Source of the DNA: a virus
Lineage: Duplodnaviria > Heunggongvirae > Uroviricota > Caudoviricetes
DNA length: 34,328 nucleotides
Direction: 5' to 3' (one strand)
IMG/VR virus record: IMGVR_UViG_2526164597_000016
The position numbers and the translations under genes are program-made. Shown one piece after another: positions 1 through 33,425 of the stretch. The notes beneath the pieces are model-generated. The model saw only the letters and a list, made by a program, of their open reading frames with translations. It did not search any database and had not been told where the DNA came from. Numbering within the stretch: the first letter of the stretch is position 1; each line of letters begins with the position of its first letter.

Positions 1-981
1 TTATAACGTCACTCCGCCTTTTAGAGGATTCAGCGCGACGGCATTTTGCAGGTAGTCAGGCGCAAGGTGCGCATAGGCCATCGTCTGCTGAATGCTCGCA
101 TGTCCCAGAATCTGTTGCAGTGCGATTATATTGCCCCCATTCATCATGAAATGGCTTGCGAATGTATGCCGCAGGATGTGGGTTGCCTGATTGGGTGGTA
201 TATCTGGCTTCACTCTGCGTAAAATCCCGCAAAACTTCTCATAATCAACTTTGAATAATTTAGCGCTGGCCTCCTCTTTAACTTTTTTCTCCAGTTCCTC
301 AGAAATCGGCACGGTTCGCTTTTTACCGTTTTTGGTTTTCAGGAAGGTAACCCTGCAATTTGTAATCTGTGCTGGTTTTAGCGTGGCAACTTCCGTCCAT
401 CTTCCTCCAGTGCTCAGACATAAAAGTGCGACAAGTAAGTCATCACCATCCAGAACATTTAACAGTTTTTCGATTTCTGCTTTTTCCAGGAACGTCATTT
501 CAGGGTTGGCCTCCGCCAGTGGCGGCAGTCCGTGAATTGGGTGTTGCCCGGAAAATTCATCCAATTGAATTAATTTTGTGAACATGCCGGATAATCGGTA
601 CATGTCACGGTTTATCGTTGCGGCACTGATACCATCACGTAGTCGCATGGAACGATAATCCATCAAAGCTCTTTTGCTCATCCGGCTCACTGGTATATCA
701 CCTATGCCGCTGATGGTTTTGAGCAGATGATTAAACTCTTTTGTTCCATGCTCGTGGTTTTGCCCGTGATATTTCCACCAGATGTCCAGCAACTCACTCA
801 AAGTTCTGCGATCTGCTCGCTGACCTGCCCATTCTTTCTGGCTGGCGTAGGCGATTGTGTATCGCTCAAATGCTACAGCCTCAGCTTTTCTTTCAAATTT
901 CCTGCGGATGCGTTTTCCGTCGCGACCGCGAGGTCTAATGTCCACTTCATAGCGTCCATCATCGAGCTTCTTAATTGACAT
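1..981 (-). CDS. int: Tyrosine integrase (P2 Int-like); start taken at internal ATG 979-981 preceded by GAGGG; alternative start at 1011
   Basis: Translation contains the tyrosine recombinase motifs HILRHTF (HxxR) and AYAHLAP (catalytic Tyr); N-terminus MSIKKLDDGRYEVDIRP resembles P2 Int; stop codon at 1-3. Confidence 0.85.
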   Translation of the reverse strand: MSIKKLDDGRYEVDIRPRGRDGKRIRRKFERKAEAVAFERYTIAYASQKEWAGQRADRRTLSELLDIWWKYHGQNHEHGTKEFNHLLKTISGIGDIPVSRMSKRALMDYRSMRLRDGISAATINRDMYRLSGMFTKLIQLDEFSGQHPIHGLPPLAEANPEMTFLEKAEIEKLLNVLDGDDLLVALLCLSTGGRWTEVATLKPAQITNCRVTFLKTKNGKKRTVPISEELEKKVKEEASAKLFKVDYEKFCGILRRVKPDIPPNQATHILRHTFASHFMMNGGNIIALQQILGHASIQQTMAYAHLAPDYLQNAVALNPLKGGVTL

Positions 982-1050
982 AAGAAAGCCCTCTGACGCT
1001 GTATTCACCATCTTGGTAACAAATGGTGAAAATGTAATGTTTATAGAGTG

Positions 1051-3253: not shown

Positions 3254-3525
3254 GTATTCGTATTGAAATTGGCGAACGTTATGTCGTTACCAGTGACAGC
3301 TTTCAGTTTATTCTCCACGAGAAAAAGAGAGCGGAAAGCGGTAAAAACGCCGGTCAGGAATGGCTGTCGGTGGTTGGTTATTACCCGAAATTAAGCCAGC
3401 TCGTTTCCGGCCTGATGCATCACGATATTCTGACCGGAAGCGCAAAGTCTTTTGCTGATTTAAACGCGCAGGTTGAGCAACTCAGCAAGCGTTGTTCAGA
3501 GGCTTTTGGCTCATATGGCCGTTAA
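3250..3525 (+). CDS. Early hypothetical protein (P2 orf83 position)
   Basis: 91-aa ORF; ATGA overlap with the previous gene. Confidence 0.5.
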   Translation: MSIRIEIGERYVVTSDSFQFILHEKKRAESGKNAGQEWLSVVGYYPKLSQLVSGLMHHDILTGSAKSFADLNAQVEQLSKRCSEAFGSYGR

Positions 3526-5785
3526 AGCCTCCGGGCGTTTTGTCCCTCCGTCAGCATTTGCCGCAGGCACCGGTAAGACGACCGGTGCTTATGCATGGAA
3601 CGCGCCACGCGAGGCCGTCGGGCGCGAAAGACCCCTTACACGTGACGAGATGCGTCAGGTGCAAGGTGTTTTATCCACGATTAACCGCCTGCCTTACTTT
3701 TTGCGCTCGCTGTTTACTTCACGCTATGACTACATCCGGCGCAATAAAAGCCCGGTGCACGGGTTTTATTTCCTCACATCCACTTTTCAGCGTCGTTTAT
3801 GGCCGCGCATTGAGCGTGTGAATCAGCGCCATGAAATGAACACCGACACGTCGTTGCTGTTTCTGGCAGAGCGTGACCACTATGCGCGCCTGCCGGGAAT
3901 GAATGACAAGGAGCTGAAAAAGTTTGCCGCCCGTATCTCATCGCAGCTTTTCATGATGTATGAGGAACTCAGCGATGCCTGGGTGGATGCGCATGGCGAA
4001 AAAGAATCACTGTTTACGGATGAGGCTCAGGCTCACCTGTATGGTCATGTTGCTGGCGCTGCACGAGCTTTCAATATTTCCCCTCTCTACTGGAAAAAAT
4101 ACCGTAAAGGACAGATGACCACGAGGCAGGCATATTCTGCCATTGCCCGTCTGTTTAACGATGAGTGGTGGACTCATCAGCTTAAAGGCCAGCGTATGCG
4201 CTGGCATGAAGCGTTACTGATAGCTGTCGGGGAGGTCAATAAAGACCGTTCTCCTTATGCCAGTAAACACGCCATTCGTGATGTGCGTGCGCGCCGCCAG
4301 GCAAATCTGGAATTTCTTAAATCGTGTGATCTCGAAAACAGGGAAACCGGCGAGCGCATCGACCTTATCAGTAAGGTGATGGGCAGTATTTCTAATCCTG
4401 AAATTCGCCGGATGGAGCTGATGAACACCATTGCTGGTATTGAGCGTTACGCCGCAGCAGAGGGTGATGTGGGGATGTTTATCACGCTCACCGCGCCGTC
4501 AAAGTATCACCCGACACGTCAGGTTGGAAAAGGCGAAAGTAAAACCGTCCAGCTAAATCACGGCTGGAACGATGAGGCATTTAATCCAAAGGATGCGCAG
4601 CGTTATCTCTGCCGCATCTGGAGCCTGATGCGCACGGCATTCAAGGATAATGATTTACAGGTCTACGGTTTGCGTGTCGTCGAGCCACACCACGACGGAA
4701 CGCCGCACTGGCATATGATGCTTTTTTGTAATCCACGCCAGCGTAACCAGATTATCGAAATCATGCGTCGCTATGCGCTCAAAGAGGATGGTGACGAAAG
4801 AGGAGCCGCGCGAAACCGTTTTCAGGCAAAGCACCTTAACCGGGGCGGTGCTGCGGGATATATCGCGAAATACATTTCAAAAAACATCGACGGCTATGCA
4901 CTGGATGGTCAGCTCGATAACGATACCGGCAGGCCGCTGAAAGACACTGCCGCGGCTGTTACCGCATGGGCGTCAACGTGGCGCATTCCGCAATTTAAAA
5001 CGGTTGGCCTGCCGACAATGGGGGCTTACCGTGAACTACGCAAATTGCCTCGCGGCGTCAGCATTGCTGATGAGTTTGACGAACGCGTCGAGGCTGCACG
5101 CGCTGCCGCAGACAGTGGCGATTTTGCGCTGTATATCAGCGCGCAGGGTGGGGCAAATGTCCCGCGCGATTGTCAGACTGTCAGGGTCGCCCGTAGCCCG
5201 TCGGATGACGTTAACGAGTACGAGGAAGAGGTCGAGAGAGTGGTCGGCATTTACGCGCCGCATCTCGGCGCGCGTCATATTCATATCACCAGAACGACGG
5301 ACTGGCGCATTGTGCCGAAAGTTCCGGTCGTTCAGCCTTTGACTTTAAAAAGCGGCATCGCCGCGCCTCGGAGTCCTGTCAATAACTGTGGAAAACTCAC
5401 CGGTGGTGATACTTCGTTACCGGCTCCCACACCTTCTGAGCACGCCGCAGCAGTGCTTAATCTGGTTGATGACGGTGTTATCGAATGGAGTGACCCGGAG
5501 GTCGTGAGGGCGCTCAGAGGTGCATTAAAACACGGTCGGAGAACGCCAAGTCGTCAGCAAAGAAACGGAAGCCCGTTAAAACCACATGAAATTGCACCAT
5601 CGGCCAGACTGACCCGGTCGGAAAGAATGCAAATTACCCGTATCCGCGTTGACCTTGCTCAGAACGGTATCAGGCCGCAGCGATGGGAGCTTGAGGCGCT
5701 GGCGCGTGGCGCGACCGTAAATTATGATGGGAAAACGTTTTCATATCCGATTTCTGATGGTTGGGCGGGATTTGAAACAAACTAA
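3515..5785 (+). CDS. A: Rolling-circle replication initiator / endonuclease (P2 gpA-like); start taken at ATG 3515 (the ORF opens at TTG 3473)
   Basis: About 756 aa; N-terminus MAVKASGRFVPPSAFAAGTGK recognised as P2 gpA-like; position after B and the small ORFs. Confidence 0.85.
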   Translation: MAVKASGRFVPPSAFAAGTGKTTGAYAWNAPREAVGRERPLTRDEMRQVQGVLSTINRLPYFLRSLFTSRYDYIRRNKSPVHGFYFLTSTFQRRLWPRIERVNQRHEMNTDTSLLFLAERDHYARLPGMNDKELKKFAARISSQLFMMYEELSDAWVDAHGEKESLFTDEAQAHLYGHVAGAARAFNISPLYWKKYRKGQMTTRQAYSAIARLFNDEWWTHQLKGQRMRWHEALLIAVGEVNKDRSPYASKHAIRDVRARRQANLEFLKSCDLENRETGERIDLISKVMGSISNPEIRRMELMNTIAGIERYAAAEGDVGMFITLTAPSKYHPTRQVGKGESKTVQLNHGWNDEAFNPKDAQRYLCRIWSLMRTAFKDNDLQVYGLRVVEPHHDGTPHWHMMLFCNPRQRNQIIEIMRRYALKEDGDERGAARNRFQAKHLNRGGAAGYIAKYISKNIDGYALDGQLDNDTGRPLKDTAAAVTAWASTWRIPQFKTVGLPTMGAYRELRKLPRGVSIADEFDERVEAARAAADSGDFALYISAQGGANVPRDCQTVRVARSPSDDVNEYEEEVERVVGIYAPHLGARHIHITRTTDWRIVPKVPVVQPLTLKSGIAAPRSPVNNCGKLTGGDTSLPAPTPSEHAAAVLNLVDDGVIEWSDPEVVRALRGALKHGRRTPSRQQRNGSPLKPHEIAPSARLTRSERMQITRIRVDLAQNGIRPQRWELEALARGATVNYDGKTFSYPISDGWAGFETN

Positions 5786-5896
5786 CAATAATGATTGACA
5801 TGCTTGATTTTGTATTCACAAATCAAGCATCAAGTAAACATCGATGATGAGAAAGAACAATGCTACAATCCCCACAGCATTAGAAGGAGGTTTATC
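5786..5896 (+). promoter_or_regulatory. Promoter/operator region of the methyltransferase gene
   Basis: Perfect inverted repeat TGCTTGATTT 5801-5810 / AAATCAAGCA 5820-5829 (9-bp spacer) next to TTGACA 5795-5800; extended -10-like TGcTACAAT at 5861-5869; AGGAGG 5885-5890 six nt before the TTG start. Confidence 0.5.
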
Positions 5897-6946
5897 TTGA
5901 TTAAGGTTGTTGATTTATTCTGTGGCGCGGGTGGCTTGACTCACGGTCTTCAGAAGTCGGGGCTTAATGTAGTTGCAGGTTATGATATAGATGCAGCCTG
6001 TCGATTTGCCTATGAGACAAATAATAAATCACTCTTTGTCCAGAAAAGTGTTACAGACATTGAGGACGGCGAATTAGTTAAATATTTCGAAGGAGCGAAG
6101 GTTCGAGTTTTGGCTGGTTGTGCCCCATGCCAACCTTTTTCAAGCTATACCAATAGTGCTAAATTAGGGGTAGTACGTTCAAAAGATAAAAGATGGTCTT
6201 TGCTTTATAGCTTTGCTAAGCAAATTAAATTTGCAAAGCCAGATATTATTACAATGGAAAACGTTCCCCGAGTGGTGAATCATAAGGTTTTTAAGGACTT
6301 CATTAAGTCTCTTAAAAATGATGGCTATTTTGTTTGGTATGGGGTGGTGTTTTGTCCAGACTATGGAATGGCACAAAGTCGTTCAAGATTAGTGTTATTG
6401 GCATCAAAATATGGAGAAATAGAAATAATTCCACCAACTCATGAGAAGAATGATTATAAAACGGTGCGAGATATAATCGGTAATCTTCCTGAAATTAGTG
6501 CCGGTGCTGTTCACGCTGGAGATAAACTACATCGCTCTGCATCATTATCTGATATTAATATAAAAAGAATAATGGCATCAAAACCTGGTGGAACATGGCG
6601 TGATTGGCCAGAAGAGCTAAGAGCAAAATGTCATACAAAAGAAAGTGGTTCTACATATACTGCTGTATATGGGAGAATGTGTTGGGATAAACTTGGACCG
6701 ACAATTACAACTCAATGTATTGGATATGGGAATGGACGCTTTGGGCACCCTGTCCAAAATAGAGCATTAAGTTTAAGAGAGGCTGCGCTATTACAGTCAT
6801 TCCCAGAAAAGTATGAGTTTTGGCCTGATGATGTAAAAATTGAAATGAGAACAGTTGCGCGTTTAATAGGTAATGCTGTTCCTGTTAGGCTTGGTGAGGT
6901 CGTAGGTGAAACTATTTTAAAACATTTGTCAGAAATGAATATTTAA
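5897..6946 (+). CDS. DNA (cytosine-5)-methyltransferase (Dcm-like), probable TTG start
   Basis: Motif I DLFCGAGG, motif IV PCQPFS (catalytic Cys), motif VI ENV, motif VIII QSRSR, motif X GNAV; the ORF-track N-terminal extension from 5795 translates the promoter/palindrome and is probably not coding. Confidence 0.85.
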   Translation: MIKVVDLFCGAGGLTHGLQKSGLNVVAGYDIDAACRFAYETNNKSLFVQKSVTDIEDGELVKYFEGAKVRVLAGCAPCQPFSSYTNSAKLGVVRSKDKRWSLLYSFAKQIKFAKPDIITMENVPRVVNHKVFKDFIKSLKNDGYFVWYGVVFCPDYGMAQSRSRLVLLASKYGEIEIIPPTHEKNDYKTVRDIIGNLPEISAGAVHAGDKLHRSASLSDINIKRIMASKPGGTWRDWPEELRAKCHTKESGSTYTAVYGRMCWDKLGPTITTQCIGYGNGRFGHPVQNRALSLREAALLQSFPEKYEFWPDDVKIEMRTVARLIGNAVPVRLGEVVGETILKHLSEMNI

Positions 6947-6958
6947 AACTTATGTCAT

Positions 6959-6980
6959 CCCCCTGTCAAAAAACAGGGGG
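6959..6980. terminator. Hairpin between convergent genes, probable bidirectional terminator
   Basis: CCCCCTG (6959-6965), loop TCAAAAAA, CAGGGGG (6974-6980), lying between the methyltransferase stop (6946) and the ATPase stop (6987). Confidence 0.5.
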
Positions 6981-6986
6981 GTATAA

Positions 6987-8945
6987 TTAGATTCCCTCAA
7001 CTATTTTCATAATTCTAGCTGCATCATTCTTTTTGTCTTGATATTCAGCATAGGCTTGTTTTGATTGCACGATTAGGTCATTATATGTCAATATTTTTCC
7101 ATTGATAGAAAGTAATTGCATATTTATAAAGTGTTGGTTCTCTTGTAAATATCCAGAGCCAACCAGGAATATTACTTCTATATGCGGTATATTTCCACCT
7201 GGGCAATTTTTAGGGTTATTGGAGAACCATTGTGTCGTTGCCTGTACATATTTATTACCTTGTGCGACTAGGTTCATTATATCTGGGTGCACTTTAGGTC
7301 GTTTCATCTCAATAATTACATGCTTGCCAGAAACGGTTTTGAAAGCGATATCAATACGAGCACCGCTAGCAGCATCAGGGTTTATCTGTTTTAGTTCCTT
7401 GGTCAATGTTTGCTCCATAACAGATGTGCCTGTGACTCTTTCCCATGAAGGATCCAATAACCATAAATGATCATATAAATACATTTGTACAGCTCTTTCA
7501 AGCTGATTTTCATCAGTTATTTTTTGGAATTTTTCAATTACTTTAAGGCGTTGCGAAGTAATTTCATAAAACATGCTTGCTTCAATGTCATTGACAGATG
7601 CAAATACATCTTTAAAATTTTCTGATTGAAGGTTGCTTATTTTATCTAATGCATCAAGGTTGTCTTGAATTCTAAGTCTTTCAAAGGCTAATACCGTATT
7701 TTTTAATACGGTTTTTCTTGCTGCTTTTTGTTCTTCCTCATTACCAGAAAAACGGAATGTGTTTACTCGTCCAATTAACTTTTCGGCACTTTCTCTCTCA
7801 TGTTTTTTGAGAGAATTCAGCCATTCACTTACTATTGGAGTATTGCTTTTAACTTCATTTACTCCTTTTTCGCGTCTCCATTTATCCCAATCTTTATCGA
7901 TTAGTTGTAGCGTTCTTTCCAGAAAACCTTTAAGTACAGGGTATCTTGGATCATTCTGTTGTAGTTTTTGACGAGAAGATGTTGCCATATCAGGCTTTTC
8001 GTTATCATCTAGAAAATCGGCGACTATTTCACCGACCAGATAATTGGTGAATACTTTAGCACTTCCAAATTCTAATAATATGTCCTCCTCAAAAACACGT
8101 CCGTGAGAGATTACAGTAATGCTGTTGTTAGATATTTCAGGGTCTTTCTTTAACTGTGATGGCTTAACTACACTGCCAATGTACCCACTAACTTTTACAT
8201 CTTTTCCTTCAAAGGTAATAGTATTTGGTAATATGTTTTTTTGTGTGATGTTTGTGCAGGATTTTATCCTTTCAGGGTCGGATTCGCCAAATTCCCAAAT
8301 GAACTCGAGATCTGAAAGGAAATCTCTATCTGCCGGTGTAATATCGGTCCCATTAATTTTAACTGTAAAGTTATGGTTGGGGCCAATAATGCTAAATCGA
8401 CGAGCTATTCGCTTTCTGAGGTAAGTTTGAGTCCTATCAATGGCTTTTTTTAGTTCAAATAATTTAATTGTAGTGCCGTAAGCAAGATTTTCGGGTATTT
8501 CAAGGGAGTCAGCAATATAGTTTTTTGATTCTTTGATACTTTGCTGTAAATCTTTGACATCTACCTCAAAGGCCTGAGGCTGTTCCCCCTTTTTGTACGA
8601 ATAAACTTGGATTTTATTGGCAAGTGAAAACATGGCAAGCTTACCAATACCTTTTCTGCCCATAACTTGACGTTTTAGATGATCGCTTTTGGCTCTTCCA
8701 TGTTCCCTGCGAGCATAACCGACTTTTAGGAACTTATTAATAATGTCATCTTTAGACATGCCATGACCATCATCTTTAATGATGACCTCTCCTTTCTCAA
8801 CATCAAGTGTAATTTCTACATTTTGAGCATCTGCATCCCATGCATTTGATATAATCTCAGTTAGTACCGCGGGAGTATTGGAATAGAGACTCATCCCTAG
8901 GTGATTTAGCACATTCAAATCAATTTTAATTTCGAAATCTGACAT
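6987..8945 (-). CDS. GHKL (Bergerat-fold, MORC/MutL-like) ATPase with C-terminal PD-(D/E)xK-like nuclease motif; candidate defence or restriction effector
   Basis: N-terminal ATPase motifs EIISNAWDA (N box), DDGHGM (G1), GRKGIGKLA (G2); C-terminal RIDIAF ... HVIIEMKRP fits a D ... E-x-K nuclease signature; AAGGA precedes the ATG; gene is AT-rich by inspection. Confidence 0.7.
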   Translation of the reverse strand: MSDFEIKIDLNVLNHLGMSLYSNTPAVLTEIISNAWDADAQNVEITLDVEKGEVIIKDDGHGMSKDDIINKFLKVGYARREHGRAKSDHLKRQVMGRKGIGKLAMFSLANKIQVYSYKKGEQPQAFEVDVKDLQQSIKESKNYIADSLEIPENLAYGTTIKLFELKKAIDRTQTYLRKRIARRFSIIGPNHNFTVKINGTDITPADRDFLSDLEFIWEFGESDPERIKSCTNITQKNILPNTITFEGKDVKVSGYIGSVVKPSQLKKDPEISNNSITVISHGRVFEEDILLEFGSAKVFTNYLVGEIVADFLDDNEKPDMATSSRQKLQQNDPRYPVLKGFLERTLQLIDKDWDKWRREKGVNEVKSNTPIVSEWLNSLKKHERESAEKLIGRVNTFRFSGNEEEQKAARKTVLKNTVLAFERLRIQDNLDALDKISNLQSENFKDVFASVNDIEASMFYEITSQRLKVIEKFQKITDENQLERAVQMYLYDHLWLLDPSWERVTGTSVMEQTLTKELKQINPDAASGARIDIAFKTVSGKHVIIEMKRPKVHPDIMNLVAQGNKYVQATTQWFSNNPKNCPGGNIPHIEVIFLVGSGYLQENQHFINMQLLSINGKILTYNDLIVQSKQAYAEYQDKKNDAARIMKIVEGI

Positions 8946-18628: not shown

Positions 18629-19414
18629 TTATGAGTGATTTTTATTTGATGCTTTGTATTCTAAAACCTTCTTATTGGCGTAAAAGAATTTTGTATATGA
18701 CAGGAATATAACCAGACCTGAAGTGAAATAGACGAGGGATAGTATTAATAATGCTTTTTTGTGACTGTTATTATCTTTAATCTCCTGGCTTAACCATTCG
18801 GAGTCCTCCTCGTTTAGCTGTAAGAGCTTATTGCAGGCGATTTCAGGAAGTGTGTCTTTTATAAATACGTTTTGCAGTCTCTTGCAATCGGCAAGGCTAT
18901 AAGTTTTATTAAATTCAACTGCTTTATTTTTGAAGGATAAAAGAACTTTGTCACTATAAACATAGTACATCATATTTTTATATGGTATGCCTATGGCATC
19001 TCTTACTATAGCGGATTGTTTGTTGTGTATATAACATGCGAAGAGAATATAAATAATACTGGCCAGAATTACAATTATTGTTTTAATTATGTGTGGTGGT
19101 TTTGTTATGTCACCCCAGATGCGAGCAAGGAAAAAATACGATGTTTTTAGTTTTCCATCAATCAGTCCCTGCTGTATCATTCTCACATTTTCAATGCCTG
19201 ATACATTGATTCCGTTAATTATTTTAAATAGTTGAATGTCGCGCCACTCGCGGTCAAGTCTTTTTAATTTTTTGTCTGAATATCCAAAATTGAAATAATG
19301 TGCAATAAGCCTCATAAGGTTACTTTTACCAAAGCTAAAAAATGCTAATACTGCAAAGCTACAAAGGAAAAAAACGATTAGCCCCCACACATTAGTCACA
19401 TTATAGCTGACCAT
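18629..19414 (-). CDS. Accessory (moron) membrane protein of unknown function, about 3 TM helices (P2 orf30 position)
   Basis: 261 aa, AT-rich and on the opposite strand to the flanking tail genes; strong AAGGAG before the ATG; hydrophobic segments VWGLIVFFLCSFAVLAFFSF, IIKTIIVILASIIYILFACYI, ALLILSLVYFTSGLVIFLSY. Confidence 0.6.
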   Translation of the reverse strand: MVSYNVTNVWGLIVFFLCSFAVLAFFSFGKSNLMRLIAHYFNFGYSDKKLKRLDREWRDIQLFKIINGINVSGIENVRMIQQGLIDGKLKTSYFFLARIWGDITKPPHIIKTIIVILASIIYILFACYIHNKQSAIVRDAIGIPYKNMMYYVYSDKVLLSFKNKAVEFNKTYSLADCKRLQNVFIKDTLPEIACNKLLQLNEEDSEWLSQEIKDNNSHKKALLILSLVYFTSGLVIFLSYTKFFYANKKVLEYKASNKNHS

Positions 19415-19497
19415 TACGCTCTCCTTGAATGTTGTCTGGTAGTTCTACAAATGAATCCAGATAGCATAACTTTTATATATTGTGCAATCTCACATGC
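19415..19497. promoter_or_regulatory. Candidate late promoter for the V operon and promoter of the divergent cargo gene
   Basis: TATATA at 19474-19479 upstream of V; partial Ogr-like dyad TGT-N11-ACA at 19433-19449, which is not the canonical N12 spacing. Confidence 0.3.
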
Positions 19498-20133
19498 ATG
19501 AACACTCTCGCAAATATTCAGGAACTCGCGCGCGCACTGCGCAACATGATTCGCACCGGCCTTGTCGTCGAAACCGACCTTAACGCCGGTCGCTGCCGTG
19601 TGCAGACCGGCGGCATGTGCACCGACTGGCTTCAGTGGCTGACCTGTCGTGCCGGGCGTTCGCGCACATGGTGGGCACCTTCCGTGGGAGAGCAGGTGCT
19701 GATTCTGGCCGTGGGCGGTGAACTTGACACGGCGTTTGTTCTGCCGGGGATTTATTCCGGCGATAACCCCGCGCCGTCTGCGTCGGCGGATGCCCTGCAT
19801 ATCCGTTTCCCTGACGGGGCGGTGATTGAGTATGAACCCGAAACCAGTGCACTCACGGTAAGCGGAATTAAAACGGCCAGCGTGACGGCTTCTGATTCTG
19901 TTACTGCCACGGTGCCGGTGGTCATGGTGAAAGCGTCAACCCGCATCACCCTGGACACACCGGAGGTGGTCTGCACCAACAGGCTGATTACCGGCACGCT
20001 GGAAGTGCAGAAGGGCGGGACGATGCGCGGCAACATTGAACACACCGGCGGTGAACTCTCATCAAACGGTAAGGTACTGCATACCCATAAACACCCCGGC
20101 GACAGCGGCGGCACAACCGGGAGTCCTCTATGA
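19498..20133 (+). CDS. V: Baseplate spike / assembly protein V (P2 gpV)
   Basis: 211 aa from ATG 19498 (MNTLANIQELARAL...), matching P2 gpV. Confidence 0.85.
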   Translation: MNTLANIQELARALRNMIRTGLVVETDLNAGRCRVQTGGMCTDWLQWLTCRAGRSRTWWAPSVGEQVLILAVGGELDTAFVLPGIYSGDNPAPSASADALHIRFPDGAVIEYEPETSALTVSGIKTASVTASDSVTATVPVVMVKASTRITLDTPEVVCTNRLITGTLEVQKGGTMRGNIEHTGGELSSNGKVLHTHKHPGDSGGTTGSPL

Positions 20134-21923: not shown

Positions 21924-24173
21924 ATGAGCACAAAATTCAGAACCGTTATCACCACTGCTGGTGCAGCAAAGCTGGCAGCGGCAACCGCGCCGGGAGGGCG
22001 GAAGGTCAACATTACCACGATGGCCGTCGGGGATGGCGGTGGTAAATTGCCTGTCCCGGATGCCGGACAGACCGGGCTTATCCACGAAGTCTGGCGACAT
22101 GCGCTGAACAAAATCAGCCAAGACAAACGAAACAGTAATTATATTATCGCAGAGCTGGTTATTCCGCCGGAGGTGGGCGGTTTCTGGATGCGTGAGCTTG
22201 GCCTGTACGATGATGCTGGAACGTTAATTGCCGTGGCGAACATGGCTGAAAGTTATAAGCCAGCTCTTGCCGAAGGCTCAGGGCGTTCGCAGACCTGCCG
22301 CATGGTCATCATCGTCAGCAGTGTGGCCTCAGTGGCGCTGACCATTGACACCACAACGGTGATGGCAACGCAGGATTACGTTGATGACAAAATTGCAGAA
22401 CATGAACAGTCACGACGTCACCCGGACGCCTCGCTGACCGCCAAAGGTTTTACTCAGTTAAGCAGTGCGACCAACAGCACGTCTGAAACACTCGCCGCAA
22501 CACCAAAAGCGGTAAAAGCAGCATATGACCTTGCTAACGGGAAATACACTGCACAGGACGCCACCACAGCGCGAAAAGGCCTTGTCCAGCTCAGTAGTGC
22601 CACCAACAGCACGTCTGAAACGCTCGCCGCAACACCAAAAGCGGTAAAAGCAGCATATGACCTTGCTAACGGGAAATACACTGCACAGGACGCCACCACC
22701 GCGCGAAAAGGCCTTGTCCAGCTCAGTAGCGCCACCAACAGCGATTCTGAAACGCTTGCGGCAACGCCAAAGGCGGTTAAGACAGCGTATGACCTTGCTA
22801 ACGGGAAATACACTGCACAGGATGCCACCACAGCGCGAAAAGGTCTTGTCCAGCTCAGTAGCGCCACCAACAGTGATTCTGAAACGCTGGCTGCAACACC
22901 AAAAGCGGTGAAGTCTGCCTATGACAATGCTGAAAAACGTCTTCAGAAAGATCAGAACGGTGCGGATATTCCTGATAAAGGACGCTTCCTGAGTAACATT
23001 AATGTTTACAGCAAAGGTGAAGTGGATAAGAAAAAGGGAATGCGAAAGTATTCGTTTGCAGCCCCTGCAAATGTCGTTGCCGGGAAGTGGTATCCCGTTA
23101 TCTTTCGCCGTGCTGCCAGCCTTTCAGGAGAAATGGCATCCCGCGTCGTTATTTCAACTGGTTGTTATAACGGCGATTATGTAATGAATAACTGCGAGTT
23201 TAATGGCATGGTTATGCCCGGAGGCTGGACCGATCGTGGTTCATATGCGGCAGGTTATTTCTGGACGTATCAGACTAATGAGCGTTCAATCCATTCCATT
23301 GTTACAAGCCTGAAAGATGATGATGTATGTAGTGTTTTTTATGTTGAAGCCAGAGCTTTCCCTGTACAAATTCTTGCAGAGGAAGGGCTAACGGTTATTG
23401 TTCCGACAGAGGATTATGTCGTCGGTCAAACGACATATAAGTGGGGGGCAACTAATCCCGCTACAGAAAGCACGAACGCACAGGCTATTCTGGATTTTAA
23501 AAATGGGCGCGGTTATTACTGCTCACATCCATTTATTTCCAGCCTTTCAGGAAATGCTGCAACAGCAACGAAGTTAGCGAATGCAAGAAATATTAATGGT
23601 GTCAGATTTGATGGTTCTGCCGATATAAATATTAATACACTGGTATCCAGAAACCGTGTTACTGCATTAGGTGGGAGCTCAAAGGGTACACCAGGTATTC
23701 AGATGTATGAGGCATACAACAATGGCTACCCAACAGCCTATGGTAATGTGCTTCATCTCACTGGCGTAACCGCAGTAGGAGAGGGTGAGTTACTTATTGG
23801 CTGGAGTGGAACCAGCGGTGCTCATGCTCCGGCATATATTCGCTCCCGACGAGATACCACAGATGCTAACTGGTCTGGATGGGCGCAACTATATACAACT
23901 GCTCATAAACCCTCAGCGGGAGATGTTGGTGCATACACCAAAGCTGAGTCAGATTCACGTTATGTGAGAGACATGCGACTGGGCGGTGCATCTACATATA
24001 AACCAGCAAATAATGGTACTACATGGACGCATCAGGCTCCGTCAGGTTGCGTATATACCGGCATTATTGTTCAGGATACCGGCTCAAACTCTGCCGATAA
24101 CATTGGTGGCGTATATTACAGGCCGGTGCAGAAATACATTAACGGGACATGGTATAACGTGGCGCAGGTATAA
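21924..24173 (+). CDS. H: Tail fibre protein H with internal tandem repeats
   Basis: 749 aa; conserved N-terminal tail-fibre region, repeat block, then divergent C-terminal receptor-binding part; followed by G. Confidence 0.85.
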   Translation: MSTKFRTVITTAGAAKLAAATAPGGRKVNITTMAVGDGGGKLPVPDAGQTGLIHEVWRHALNKISQDKRNSNYIIAELVIPPEVGGFWMRELGLYDDAGTLIAVANMAESYKPALAEGSGRSQTCRMVIIVSSVASVALTIDTTTVMATQDYVDDKIAEHEQSRRHPDASLTAKGFTQLSSATNSTSETLAATPKAVKAAYDLANGKYTAQDATTARKGLVQLSSATNSTSETLAATPKAVKAAYDLANGKYTAQDATTARKGLVQLSSATNSDSETLAATPKAVKTAYDLANGKYTAQDATTARKGLVQLSSATNSDSETLAATPKAVKSAYDNAEKRLQKDQNGADIPDKGRFLSNINVYSKGEVDKKKGMRKYSFAAPANVVAGKWYPVIFRRAASLSGEMASRVVISTGCYNGDYVMNNCEFNGMVMPGGWTDRGSYAAGYFWTYQTNERSIHSIVTSLKDDDVCSVFYVEARAFPVQILAEEGLTVIVPTEDYVVGQTTYKWGATNPATESTNAQAILDFKNGRGYYCSHPFISSLSGNAATATKLANARNINGVRFDGSADININTLVSRNRVTALGGSSKGTPGIQMYEAYNNGYPTAYGNVLHLTGVTAVGEGELLIGWSGTSGAHAPAYIRSRRDTTDANWSGWAQLYTTAHKPSAGDVGAYTKAESDSRYVRDMRLGGASTYKPANNGTTWTHQAPSGCVYTGIIVQDTGSNSADNIGGVYYRPVQKYINGTWYNVAQV
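22455..22982 (+). repeat. Four tandem copies of a 132-bp (44-aa) unit inside H (phage tail-fibre repeat)
   Basis: Units start at 22455, 22587, 22719 and 22851 (LSSATNS(T/D)SETLAATPKAVKAAYDLANGKYTAQDATTARKGLVQ); the last copy degenerates. Confidence 0.85.
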
Positions 24174-24176
24174 TTT

Positions 24177-24704
24177 ATGCAGCATTTAAAAAATATTACG
24201 GCGGGTAATCCAAAAACGGTTGAACAATATCAATTGACAAAGAACTTTGATGTTGTCTGGTTTTTTTCAGAAGATGGTAAGAACTGGTACGAAGAACAAA
24301 AGTATTTTGCTGATGACACGATAAAAATAGCGTACGACAAAGATAATATCATCCGCTATGTGGAAAAGGATGTGACAGCTATCAGACCGGATGGATTAAG
24401 TGTTGTTGAAGTGGCGGATATTACTGCTAACCGACGGGCGGACATTTCAGGGAACTGGATGTTTAAGGATGGCACAGTGATCAAACGAATTTATACGGCA
24501 GAGGAATTGCAACTGCAGGCAGAAAACCGGAAAGCCAGACTTCTTGCAGATGCTGAATCCGTGATTTTGCCGCTAGAGCGTGCTGTCAGGCTGAACATGG
24601 CAACAGAGGAGGAGCGCACACGGCTGGAGGCTTGGGAACGCTACAGCGTTGTGGTCAGTCGTGTGGATCCTGCAAATCCTGAATGGCCGGAAATGCCGCA
24701 ATAA
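24177..24704 (+). CDS. G: Tail fibre assembly chaperone G
   Basis: 175 aa, same as P2 gpG; immediately downstream of H. Confidence 0.8.
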
Positions 24705-24985
24705 GTTGTATGAACTCTGGTGTGAGCTTACATATCTATGGCACAGAGTAAAGCCTAATCTGACAGTCCGCTCTGTGCCAGGAGCGGAAGTTGCCAAGAG
24801 AACTCTTGCAAAGGTATGATAACGTAGGTGCTAAATAATCATGAACCATAATAAATTAAAGGTTTTTAAGTTAACTCTATGGCGTTTCTTTTGCATGATG
24901 ATTTTTTATTTATTATATAAAGCTTAAATATACATAATATTTAGCTTCATTTTTTTAGGTATTTTAAAGATTTAGAGGAATGTGA

Positions 24986-25921
24986 ATGGCTACTTATGCT
25001 TCTTATTTACCAGAATCACAAATTATCACTTTGTGCAAGGATTTCCCAGCGTTTACTGATCCTGAAAAATTAGATGGATTCATTAATCCAGAACAGTTTG
25101 GCGTGTTTTTTCATGAGTGGATTCATTTTCTTCACAATATTTCCACAATTAATGGGTTTTCTATTTTTTGCACGCAAAACATCCTGTGGTCTAATTTTCG
25201 CTGGGCAATGGACAATCAGGATGTATGTCTTGGTTCAAATGACATGGATCCAGCACATATCGAATCAAACAAAAATTTTCTCAGTTACATTCGTTCCAAT
25301 AGGAGTCTGCATAAATGTAACTTACCTTATTATGTAAAAGTAAACGACTTGTATTTTGAGGATGCAATAATCCATGACATGGAGGTTGCTGACGGTAGTG
25401 TTATATGTACATCATTAATAAAGTGTAGAATTTCTCATTCTGAAAACAAATACGATCTAGATTTAGGCGTGCTTGAAATACTTGAATCCGCAGCTTTTAT
25501 GCTTGAATGTAAGTGTATTAATGCGATGAATGGCTTCCCTCAAGAGGCACCCTTTTATCCGTATCATACTATCAAGGGCTTAGCAGCGAAAATTGCTCCG
25601 TCATTAAATGATGAAGATATTATTTGTTGTATGTTAGCTTCTTTGCAATCTAATAACCCTCCCCAAGTATTATTCAATCTACTACATAAATGTGAATTAT
25701 TACATTCTGATTGTAGGTATGAACATCTAGTGGCGGAGGTGAAAAAACAATTAAGCGAACAAGATCAAATAATAAGCGAGTCACTTAATCAAATAATTCA
25801 AATGATTCCTGTTGATGAACCGATGGGAAACTTTATCAAGCTTACTCTTAACAGAATAAGTAACAATTTGAACTATAGAAAGCAAAAACCGTTTTTTGAG
25901 TTAGATATAATAAAAAAATAG
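24986..25921 (+). CDS. Accessory protein with HExxH motif (possible zinc metallopeptidase-like), in the P2 Z/fun position
   Basis: 311 aa; AT-rich; GAGGA six nt before the ATG; motif FFHEWIHFLHN contains H-E-x-x-H. Confidence 0.6.
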   Translation: MATYASYLPESQIITLCKDFPAFTDPEKLDGFINPEQFGVFFHEWIHFLHNISTINGFSIFCTQNILWSNFRWAMDNQDVCLGSNDMDPAHIESNKNFLSYIRSNRSLHKCNLPYYVKVNDLYFEDAIIHDMEVADGSVICTSLIKCRISHSENKYDLDLGVLEILESAAFMLECKCINAMNGFPQEAPFYPYHTIKGLAAKIAPSLNDEDIICCMLASLQSNNPPQVLFNLLHKCELLHSDCRYEHLVAEVKKQLSEQDQIISESLNQIIQMIPVDEPMGNFIKLTLNRISNNLNYRKQKPFFELDIIKK

Positions 25922-25938
25922 CAGAAAAAACTGAGTTT

Positions 25939-26328
25939 ATGAATGAAGTAATACAGAAATTCGGTGGTTGCACTATCATCCAGGTAAGACATGGAGATGA
26001 TAATGAACCACAGCGTGATATTATGTATGACTTTTGCTTACCTGAAAATAATGATTCAATTTTATTTGGTTCGAAAATGCTACGCGCTTGTTTTCACTTT
26101 ATATTTATTCACTTTAAACTTTCTGGTGAAATCATGAAGACAGAAGAATTAAATATTTCGCCGCGTAATAAATGCCCATTTTATACTGTTTGCTGTGCAT
26201 CAATTCGAGCTAATAATAGTAATATCTGCGCTGAATCCCCTTGGAAATCAATGTCTATTGATGACAACAAAGGTTGTTATTATGCAGCAGCGATTAAAGC
26301 TACTAACCCACCAGTTTTGCCGGATTAA
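25939..26328 (+). CDS. Small Cys-rich accessory protein, co-oriented 17 bp downstream of the HExxH gene
   Basis: 129 aa with eight Cys (GGCTII, DFCLPE, RACFHF, CPFYTVCCA, NICAES, KGCYY); AT-rich; weak ribosome-binding site. Confidence 0.5.
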   Translation: MNEVIQKFGGCTIIQVRHGDDNEPQRDIMYDFCLPENNDSILFGSKMLRACFHFIFIHFKLSGEIMKTEELNISPRNKCPFYTVCCASIRANNSNICAESPWKSMSIDDNKGCYYAAAIKATNPPVLPD

Positions 26329-26463
26329 GAATAGTGTTCTATCTGATAAATATAAAATATTTAAGGTCAGGTCTGCTTATCGCTCAAAGCAGACTGTCAG
26401 ATTTGATAACGTTTGGGCTATGTAAACCGTCAGTTGGAAAATGAGTGAGTGCAAGTCAGGACA

Positions 26464-26490
26464 GGCGGGCGGATTGCCCGCCTTTTCTTT
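26464..26490 (+). terminator. Rho-independent terminator closing the accessory operon
   Basis: GGCGGGC 26464-26470, loop GGATT, GCCCGCC 26476-26482, then TTTTCTTT. Confidence 0.7.
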
Positions 26491-26586
26491 ATCTGTTGTT
26501 TCATCCACTGACCAGCCAGGTCAAATAGCGCCTCATGCTCTGCACAACAGAAAATAGTTGCACCCATTAACCACGGAGTTAAACGG

Positions 26587-27777
26587 ATGAGTGACTATCA
26601 TCACGGCGTGCAGGTGCTGGAGATTAACGACGGCACACGCGTCATTTCCACCGTATCCACTGCCATTGTCGGCATGGTCTGCACGGCCAGCGATGCGGAT
26701 GCGGAAACCTTCCCCCTCAATAAACCTGTGCTGATTACCAATGTGCAGAGTGCAATTGCAAAGGCCGGTAAAAAAGGCACGCTGGCGGCATCGTTGCAGG
26801 CCATCGCTGACCAGTCAAAACCGGTCACCGTTGTCGTGCGCGTGGAAGACGGCACCGGTGATGACGAGGAAACGAAACTCGCGCAGACCGTTTCTAATAT
26901 TATCGGCACCACTGACGAAAACGGTCAGTACACCGGACTGAAAGCCCTGCTGGCGGCGGAGTCGGTAACCGGTGTTAAACCGCGTATTCTTGGTGTGCCG
27001 GGGCTGGATACCAAAGAGGTGGCTGTTGCACTGGCATCAGTCTGTCAGAAGCTGCGCGCTTTCGGATATATCAGCGCATGGGGCTGTAAGACCATTTCCG
27101 AGGTGAAAGCCTACCGCCAGAATTTCAGCCAGCGTGAGCTGATGGTCATCTGGCCGGATTTCCTCGCATGGGATACGGTCACCAGTACCACCGCCACCGC
27201 GCATGCCACCGCCCGTGCGCTGGGTCTGCGCGCTAAAATCGACCAGGAGCAGGGCTGGCATAAAACGCTGTCCAACGTTGGGGTAAACGGTGTTACCGGC
27301 ATCAGCGCATCTGTATTCTGGGATTTGCAGGAGTCCGGCACCGATGCTGACCTGCTTAACGAGTCAGGCGTCACTACGCTGATTCGCCGTGACGGTTTCC
27401 GCTTCTGGGGTAACCGTACCTGCTCTGATGACCCGCTGTTCCTCTTTGAAAACTACACCCGCACCGCGCAGGTGCTGGCCGACACGATGGCTGAGGCGCA
27501 CATGTGGGCGGTGGACAAGCCCATCACCGCAACGCTGATTCGCGACATCGTTGACGGCATCAATGCCAAATTCCGTGAGCTGAAAACAAACGGCTATATC
27601 GTGGATGCGACCTGCTGGTTCAGCGAAGAATCCAACGATGCGGAAACCCTCAAGGCCGGAAAACTGTATATCGACTACGACTATACCCCGGTGCCTCCTC
27701 TCGAAAACCTGACCCTGCGCCAGCGTATTACTGATAAATACCTGGCAAGTCTGGTCACCTCGGTTAACAGCAATTAA
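26587..27777 (+). CDS. FI: Tail sheath protein FI
   Basis: 396 aa, same as P2 gpFI. Confidence 0.9.
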   Translation: MSDYHHGVQVLEINDGTRVISTVSTAIVGMVCTASDADAETFPLNKPVLITNVQSAIAKAGKKGTLAASLQAIADQSKPVTVVVRVEDGTGDDEETKLAQTVSNIIGTTDENGQYTGLKALLAAESVTGVKPRILGVPGLDTKEVAVALASVCQKLRAFGYISAWGCKTISEVKAYRQNFSQRELMVIWPDFLAWDTVTSTTATAHATARALGLRAKIDQEQGWHKTLSNVGVNGVTGISASVFWDLQESGTDADLLNESGVTTLIRRDGFRFWGNRTCSDDPLFLFENYTRTAQVLADTMAEAHMWAVDKPITATLIRDIVDGINAKFRELKTNGYIVDATCWFSEESNDAETLKAGKLYIDYDYTPVPPLENLTLRQRITDKYLASLVTSVNSN

Positions 27778-33344: not shown

Positions 33345-33425
33345 ATCCTCAATTTGCCTGCTGCTTAATGCATTGCAGATGATTTGCTTCCGTTATACTA
33401 GCGTCAGTTGATAGCGGGAGTATTT

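Follow-up and report, generated by a model that had tools for sequence, protein, structure and literature searches.

The AT-rich cassette between genes G and FI of the P2-like prophage described here almost certainly holds one gene, encoding a protein of 447 residues, which a 1-nucleotide (nt) indel has cut into two open reading frames (ORFs) of 311 and 129 residues. The window, by which we mean the whole 34,328-nt stretch of DNA that was analyzed (IMG/VR record IMGVR_UViG_2526164597_000016), is a complete P2-like prophage, and the cassette occupies its Z/fun locus. Experiments have shown that antiphage genes reside at this locus in P2-like prophages, and most of the cargo found there is unannotated. 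In the overall explanation that we consider best, and which we regard as probable, the gene encodes a metal-dependent protein that is a single-gene candidate for phage defense or exclusion, and the copy in this prophage is frameshifted.

Both ORFs are on the plus strand and lie where an earlier reading of the DNA from its letters alone (here called the sequence-only reading) had placed them. ORF1 (24986-25921; 311 residues) contains the motif HEWIH and ends at a premature TAG made by the frameshift, and ORF2 (25939-26328; 129 residues) starts 17 nt past that stop and contains eight cysteines. The sequence-only reading had interpreted the pair as an operon of two genes, the second encoding a separate Cys-rich partner. 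We find instead that ORF1 is identical to residues 1 to 311 of the intact 447-residue protein WP_000257039.1 and that ORF2 supplies the last 129 residues of that protein, the C-terminal part of the gene extending from 25918 to 26328 in the -1 frame. Both ORFs belong to PHROG 15354, an uncharacterized family of “unknown function”: along its profile of 441 positions, ORF1 matches positions 1 to 311 (E = 1.3e-202) and ORF2 matches positions 319 to 440 (E = 3.3e-62). ORF2 also matches PHROG 36473 (129 positions; E = 5.4e-94), which appears to be just a split-off C-terminal fragment of PHROG 15354. In a collection of 5.8 billion proteins we found 27 homologs of 440 to 494 residues, all of which, with the exception of one fragment, span ORF1 and ORF2, and the intact homologs cross the ORF junction without a break (...ELDIIKKIAEKTEFMNEV...). 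A profile search of 1.84 billion representatives gave 849 clusters (at 50% identity) with E ≤ 1e-3, 187 of them with E ≤ 1e-30, and nearly all full-length members of the 849 clusters (440 to 500 residues) match the profile end to end. Finally, an AlphaFold2 (AF2) model of the intact chain, built with 26 homologs, forms one compact body over the junction, with a predicted local distance difference test score (pLDDT) of 91.9 and a predicted template modeling score (pTM) of 0.92. The model was run on P0001, which is WP_000257039.1 minus its 5 N-terminal residues, so that P0001 numbering is 5 lower than the full-length numbering used for residues below.

At the DNA level, the intact and split alleles differ at a homopolymer. 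The window has a run of seven adenines (A7) at 25912-25918 on the plus strand, and intact alleles have eight (A8), as located by DNA alignment with Escherichia coli strains APEC (avian pathogenic E. coli) O2-211 (A8) and MS1679 (A7). When one A is added in silico, the intact 447-residue protein is recovered. The cassette is carried by 13 of 5,426 complete E. coli genomes. Ten of the 12 full-length matches are one base longer than the window and have one annotated coding sequence (CDS); strain H3 has an eleventh one-CDS copy, which spans 95% of the cassette; and the cassettes of strains MS1679 and GPEC1054, with two CDSs each, are identical to that of the window. The copies in IMG/VR are A8 in 4 of 4 cases. 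The exact intact sequence is present on 936 contigs, and the exact 311- and 129-residue products are present on 15 contigs each. Since the A8-carrying prophage of APEC O2-211 is 100.0% identical to the window over 24.3 kb, the split must stem either from slippage that mutated the tract very recently or from an error in assembling the homopolymer. We also observed that the 13 carriers are mostly avian or chicken isolates and strains with CDC-type human isolate names (e.g., O169:H41), and that the exact protein is found in Salmonella and Yersinia enterocolitica assemblies as well.

We considered whether the two ORFs could nevertheless be a functional operon, in which the 311-residue HExxH protein and the 129-residue Cys-rich protein would act together as, for example, a toxin-antitoxin or protease-regulator pair. 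In its favor, neither ORF is interrupted in the window and ORF2 has its own ATG, RefSeq gives two CDSs in MS1679 and GPEC1054, a PHROG with exactly the length of ORF2 exists, and split fragments might still associate noncovalently. However, homologs down to 18% identity are all single proteins, a 1-nt homopolymer indel is all that sets the window apart from the one-gene allele, the 24.3 kb of prophage compared being otherwise identical, contigs with the intact copy outnumber split ones 936 to 15, and the modeled chain folds as a single body. The ribosome-binding site of ORF2 is just GAG, 3 nt 5′ of the ATG, and its initial Met is not conserved among homologs. We therefore find an operon of two working genes hardly credible, and the RefSeq proteins WP_000257038.1 and WP_001006509.1, together with PHROG 36473, appear to be annotation artifacts of the frameshifted allele. 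A sequencing or assembly error, such that the real prophage carries the intact 447-residue gene, deserves far more weight, and we consider it a serious possibility while thinking it the less probable case. Only one base is missing, from an A8 run of the kind at which 454 and nanopore reads classically go wrong, and the prophage is otherwise indistinguishable from that of APEC O2-211; split products appear on only ~1.6% of contigs, and every IMG/VR copy is A8. On the other hand, the same split products recur on contigs from separate submissions, two finished genomes among them, and A8 tracts slip in vivo too.

If the A7 tract is real, the allele in this prophage is probably null or strongly hypomorphic. 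The alternative for a real A7 is that the allele is read as a full-length product, by -1 ribosomal frameshifting or transcriptional slippage, or that it constitutes a phase-variable on/off or dosage switch for what may be a toxic gene. The sequence ATA-ATA-AAA-AAA-TAG contains a canonical X_XXY_YYZ heptamer (A_AAA_AAA, 25912-25918) in the zero frame with a stop codon directly 3′, a -1 slip would give ...IIKKIAEKTEF..., identical to the intact protein (as would transcriptional addition of one A), and A7 and A8 alleles both exist in near-identical prophages. We nevertheless judge this alternative very unlikely. No stimulatory structure was found 3′ of the A7 tract (z = -0.9; 37 of 200 shuffles fold as well), and nearly all copies of the gene are in frame. 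The tract is also not conserved: Enterobacter has AAAAAAG instead, Sodalis has A7 with an in-frame G after it, and Aeromonas lacks the tract altogether. Moreover, efficient transcriptional slippage in E. coli generally takes a longer tract than A7, which counts against read-through of this allele.

The cassette is horizontally acquired cargo, and it lies in the G-FI (Z/fun) hotspot of the prophage, where the sequence-only reading had placed it. Alignment to P2, P2-EC67, and P2SIDE7 sets its edges: the common P2 backbone stops at ~24797 and resumes at ~26367-26372, leaving a plus-strand cassette of 1,569 bp (24798-26366) with a GC content of 0.327, compared with 0.516 for the rest of the window. 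The local GC content is 0.29 to 0.36 over ~24750-26400 and 0.51 to 0.60 on either side. The conserved left neighbor is the tail-fiber assembly gene equivalent to P2 G (24177-24704, plus strand; Pfam Caudo_TAP, E = 5.6e-33), annotated by RefSeq as “tail fiber assembly protein” in identical prophages, and the conserved right neighbor is the tail sheath gene FI (26587-27777, plus strand), annotated in the same prophages as “phage tail sheath protein”. The Z/fun locus has been described as a second defense-enriched locus of P2, with three validated systems besides fun (PMC9519451). It has also been described as a mixed-purpose hotspot in a preprint on hotspot annotation (bioRxiv 10.1101/2024.10.15.618418), and P2 hotspots are reported to carry nondefense cargo too, such as partition systems and cytolethal distending toxin (PMC9122126).

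The junctions of the cassette are bracketed by an imperfect inverted repeat of 32 nt (78% complementary), in which the left arm (24757-24788) pairs with the right arm (26372-26403). Both arms lie in backbone: the left is conserved in P2-like phages, the right is where the backbone restarts, and they are annotated in AJ512685 as “left inverted repeat” and “right inverted repeat”. The left-junction backbone (24740-24797) also folds as hairpins (-22.6 kcal/mol, z = -2.3), and inverted-repeat elements are annotated likewise at the junctions in Nilsson-type Z-region records. The hairpins and inverted repeat may be a recombination substrate for cargo swapping. A candidate sigma-70-like promoter, TTGCCA-18-TATGAT (24791-24820, plus strand), lies at the left junction in a position that parallels the annotated -35/-10 signals of P2-EC67; it is a consensus match only (10 of 12 positions), and promoter-like sites are not enriched over the region (6 observed versus 7.6 expected). 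Translation of ORF1 would start from a strong Shine-Dalgarno sequence, GAGGA (24975-24979, plus strand), read off the sequence 6 nt 5′ of the ATG at 24986. The sequence-only reading had also closed the insert with a terminator. A rho-independent terminator is indeed present at 26463-26493 on the plus strand, upstream of the FI promoter, with a hairpin (26463-26483; 9-bp GC-rich stem; -20.1 kcal/mol, z = -3.3) followed by a T-run; however, it is conserved in P2, P2-EC67, and P2SIDE7, and because it sits in the backbone common to all P2-type sequences compared, it is not part of the insert.

Other P2-type phages carry different cargo at this locus. P2-EC67 (AJ512685, 210-1121) has a gene for a 303-residue protein with an Mrr_cat restriction-endonuclease domain (E = 4.3e-5), P2SIDE7 (L004, 2770-3315) has a gene for a 181-residue protein with no Pfam match, and MK907236-type phages have a cargo protein annotated as SMEK domain-containing.

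The residues that are conserved in the family suggest how the intact protein may be built. Invariant positions in 26 sequences comprise an N-terminal motif, H43-E44-x-x-H47-x-x-H50-N51; the central residues G161, E164, E167, E174, P192-Y193, Q221, and R298; and a C-terminal group, C397-P398, C403, R408, C415, P419-W420, and C431. In an alignment of 61 sequences reaching down to ~19% identity, which uses P0001 numbering (so that E167 appears there as E162), the H and E of HExxH, E167, Y193, R298, and the four Cys residues remain invariant, and the second His of HExxH is at least 90% conserved. The HExxH(xxHN) motif, HEWIHFLHN (25112-25138, plus strand), has HEWIH at residues 43 to 47 and lies on predicted helix 30-46 of the AF2 model (P0001 numbering). 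A conserved Glu-rich helix, LEILESAAFMLE (25472-25507, plus strand; helix 157-175 of the AF2 model), contains E167, a candidate third metal ligand, and in the model a five-stranded sheet comes between this helix and the one that bears HExxH. The four invariant cysteines, C397, C403, C415, and C431 (CPxxxxC ... C..PW ... C; 26173-26283, plus strand), would form a putative Cys4 metal-binding module. Thus, of the eight cysteines in ORF2 to which the sequence-only reading had drawn attention, all are present but only four are conserved across homologs. An HExxH...E zinc site of zincin-like type together with a separate Cys4 metal site fits the observed conservation and the placement of the modeled helices. 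By inspection of its sequence, the intact protein has no signal peptide and looks cytoplasmic; it contains 20 cysteines.

The family is unrelated to all curated profiles and to the solved and viral predicted structures that we searched. Pfam, NCBIfam, and PADLOC scans of ORF1, ORF2, intact homologs, and 61 diverse members gave no family match; the only hits were two isolated weak ones, to DUF2934 and to SNaCT12, each from a single member. Against PDB sequences, profile searches returned chance matches only (E ~0.8), and Foldseek searches with the AF2 model found no structural neighbor (best E = 1.1 in PDB and 0.73 in BFVD). A metallopeptidase-like character had been proposed from the HEWIH motif; the motif itself is conserved in homologs, but no membership in a known peptidase family emerged. 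By tblastn, ORF1 has no match in 50,697 deposited phage genomes, and a scan of species-representative genomes gave 2 loci. The family is not described in the searchable literature (queried with the accessions, the PHROG identifier, and HExxH or metallopeptidase defense genes in prophage hotspots), and the protein is not mentioned in the papers on P2 hotspots.

The genomic contexts of homologs, surveyed at ~14 nonredundant loci, are those of a mobile gene. Its carriers include prophages, viral contigs, and other elements, and it is solitary and AT-rich relative to the host in every host checked (GC content of 0.31 to 0.43 versus 0.44 to 0.59). The family occupies two hotspots of divergent P2-like phages: in one such phage (L022) a 24%-identical homolog lies directly 3′ of the tail fiber and Caudo_TAP genes, and in a high-GC P2-like phage (L021/L018, 28% identical) it lies between an HTH_3 repressor plus DUF4062 gene and the tail genes. 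In large gut-metagenome phages (L023 to L034), it is a lone opposite-strand gene in an apparent tail module, with neighbors that have no Pfam match. Outside phages, a Rheinheimera copy is cargo of a Tn7-like element (TnsA, TnsB, TnsC), a Sodalis copy is within an integrative and conjugative element (ICE) with a type IV secretion system, beside a transposase and an ApeA-HEPN gene, and another copy is on a plasmid-like contig with ParA and Phd/YefM. In Pseudomonas, the gene adjoins those for a caspase-domain protein and an LmuA/Avs1a-like metallo-β-lactamase (MBL) protein; in Enterobacter, it is ~4 kb from a complete retron I-A (reverse transcriptase, ATPase, HNH), with insertion sequence elements between them; and at locus L040 it adjoins an integrase and a 900-residue NB-ARC protein. 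The remaining island copies lie with an HNH gene and Rhs in Serratia and, at locus L038, in an island with a DUF5906 gene that adjoins fis. Two Aeromonas copies are considered below. Some neighbors may themselves be uncharacterized defense genes, among them the 350-residue DUF4062 protein of the high-GC P2-like phage (L021, 6900-7952) and the Pseudomonas block (L036, 5410-8698), which encodes the caspase-domain protein, a 354-residue protein of unknown function, and the LmuA/Avs1a-like MBL.

These contexts make an exclusion role plausible. In the lysogen, a promoter of its own would drive the gene, and expression would not depend on the late operon. The protein made from an intact allele would be a cytoplasmic metal-dependent enzyme, most likely of the zincin-like hydrolase or peptidase kind, in which HExxH...E would bind zinc and the Cys4 module would hold a metal as a structural element or a sensor. 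It would act alone as an antiphage protein or as an exclusion protein in conflicts between mobile genetic elements (MGEs), possibly in a manner analogous to Lit, with an infection cue triggering hydrolysis of an essential host or phage protein. Our confidence differs among the parts of this proposal. A role of the intact protein in defense or inter-MGE conflict seems to us evenly balanced between true and false, and peptidase chemistry is a tentative assignment that falls somewhat short of even. Bolder still is the idea of a new family of single-gene antiphage or anti-MGE immunity proteins, with a fold absent from PDB and BFVD, in which infection activates an HExxH...E metal center coupled to the Cys4 site (which would sense through zinc or an Fe-S cluster), leading to destruction of a target of host or phage origin, and which has spread via P2-like prophages, other phages, Tn7-like transposons, and ICEs; we regard this as possible but doubtful. 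In the E. coli clade, the A8 tract might additionally allow on/off switching.

Several observations weigh against the candidate defense function or its support. The pentapeptide pattern HExxH arises in 2.2% of shuffles of the 311-residue sequence, so that the motif alone is weak evidence; it becomes meaningful because it is invariant across 61 divergent homologs, and the sequence-only reading, which had made its proposal depend on conservation of the motif among homologs, is borne out on this point by both sets, of 26 and of 61. No validated-defense homology was found in PADLOC-DB v2.0.0, whose 5,027 models cover known and candidate systems as of 2023, and ORF1, ORF2, and the proteins P0002 and P0027 matched none of its families. 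The evidence from defense-type contexts is anecdotal, given the ~14 nonredundant loci, and the two Aeromonas copies lie among ordinary chromosomal (housekeeping) genes. As for the copy described here, the A7 tract as assembled is compatible with a real mutation and a homopolymer assembly error alike.

Set against the candidate defense function is the view that the intact protein is a nondefense factor for lysogenic conversion or MGE fitness, one that might counter defenses, cleave a regulator as a protease, deal with stress or metals, or add to the virulence of avian or diarrhoeagenic E. coli. It agrees with the lack of similarity to any validated defense protein, with the partition systems and toxin known from P2 hotspots (PMC9122126), with the mostly APEC or diarrhoeagenic origin of the carriers, and with the copies among housekeeping genes. 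However, the gene turns up again and again at variable sites, in phages unrelated to one another, in a Tn7-like element, in an ICE, and in integrative islands, spanning several genera and groups of phages, and it often adjoins bona fide defense genes, a pattern typical of defense cargo and not of host-specific virulence factors. A secreted virulence factor in particular is unlikely because the protein, by inspection, has no signal peptide and it contains 20 cysteines. We consider a nondefense role unlikely overall and continue to favor a single-gene, metal-dependent defense or exclusion protein.

The remainder of the prophage carries additional features of interest. Its left end is marked by the integrase gene (1-1011, minus strand), the replication gene gpA (3473-5785) is followed by capsid and tail genes, and a CDF (cation diffusion facilitator)-type cation transporter gene that begins at 33408 fits host flank. 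A second AT-rich cargo (GC content, ~0.36 to 0.37) occupies the old/tin-position hotspot between gpA and the portal gene (5795-8945). It comprises a C-5 cytosine DNA methyltransferase gene (5795-6946, plus strand; PF00145, E = 1.3e-55) and, convergent with it, a gene for a 652-residue HATPase_c_3 protein (6987-8945, minus strand; PADLOC “REase_II” models, E = 2.3e-91; PHROG 6203), and it looks like a type II restriction-modification-like module. A third AT-rich insert (18629-19800, minus strand; GC content, 0.34) is embedded in opposite orientation among the late tail and baseplate genes and encodes a 261-residue ORF (PHROG 2407, unknown function) and an overlapping-stop 128-residue ORF, neither of which has a Pfam or PADLOC match, so that the prophage has a further pair of cargo ORFs lacking annotation. 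Within tail-fiber gene H (21924-24173), a 132-bp (44-residue) unit is repeated 3.3 times in tandem at 22470-22909, with 92% matching and a strong AT skew, and the GC content of the gene falls in its C-terminal half, as it would if a receptor-binding module had been swapped in.

Unknown cargo is expected in P2 hotspots, and this copy is broken. The family to which it belongs, by contrast, is well defined, widespread, unlike any described defense protein, and structurally novel among the structures searched (PDB and BFVD). Its size (849 clusters), a very confident predicted structure without a neighbor among solved or viral predicted structures, a sharp HExxH/Glu/Cys4 signature, and a mobile-element lifestyle make it a cheap, well-defined candidate immunity mechanism. 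Our results also correct the annotation, in that the 311- and 129-residue RefSeq “hypothetical proteins” and PHROG 36473 are pieces of one gene. In practice, cloning the gene from this prophage would mean cloning a frameshifted allele.

The T5-exclusion and fluorodeoxyuridine (FUdR)-sensitivity gene of P2 is Fun(Z), and the sequence-only reading had allowed that the insert might be this gene plus a neighbor. This identity is ruled out: Fun(Z) (NP_046777.1) has 528 residues and is encoded on the minus strand, in contrast to the 447-residue, plus-strand cargo gene, and the best BLASTP alignment between them (E = 1.9) covers 10 residues. Fun(Z) also has no Pfam match and no link to the HExxH family. 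What the two share is the G-FI hotspot, in which both are AT-rich, nonessential cargo bracketed by the same backbone and terminator.

The classic HExxH exclusion protease of a prophage is Lit, a zinc protease of the e14 prophage (Peptidase_U49) that cleaves EF-Tu and thereby aborts T4 infection. Kinship with Lit was rejected, as hhalign gave a probability of 0.2% against the family profile and no Peptidase_U49 match was found by Pfam; Lit itself matches PF10463 at 1.7e-112. Lit (297 residues) also lacks the Cys4 C-terminal module of the 447-residue protein. The conserved HExxH on a predicted alpha-helix is a feature shared with zincins (clan MA) more generally. However, neither Pfam and NCBIfam scans of 61 members nor Foldseek searches of PDB and BFVD revealed zincin fold or profile similarity to any peptidase family, and the protein differs from gluzincins (e.g., M32 carboxypeptidases) and from the M75/EfeO domain in having no profile match and no Foldseek match to them, in the five-stranded sheet between the HExxH and Glu helices of the model, and in its extra Cys4 module.

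Among validated single-gene defenses of P2 hotspots (Rst_DUF4238, Tin, and the PD-T4 and PD-lambda systems at the fun locus), the 447-residue protein differs in matching none of the PADLOC v2 models. It resembles them in being a lone AT-rich gene with its own promoter (a candidate one here) and in a patchy distribution (13 of 5,426 genomes here) with exchange between MGEs. Lit, which is likewise prophage-borne, single-gene, cytoplasmic, and equipped with HExxH, provides the best precedent for a lone prophage metalloprotease that excludes phage. The protein is a candidate for a new single-gene immunity of the metalloprotease type, for which Lit has been the main precedent so far.

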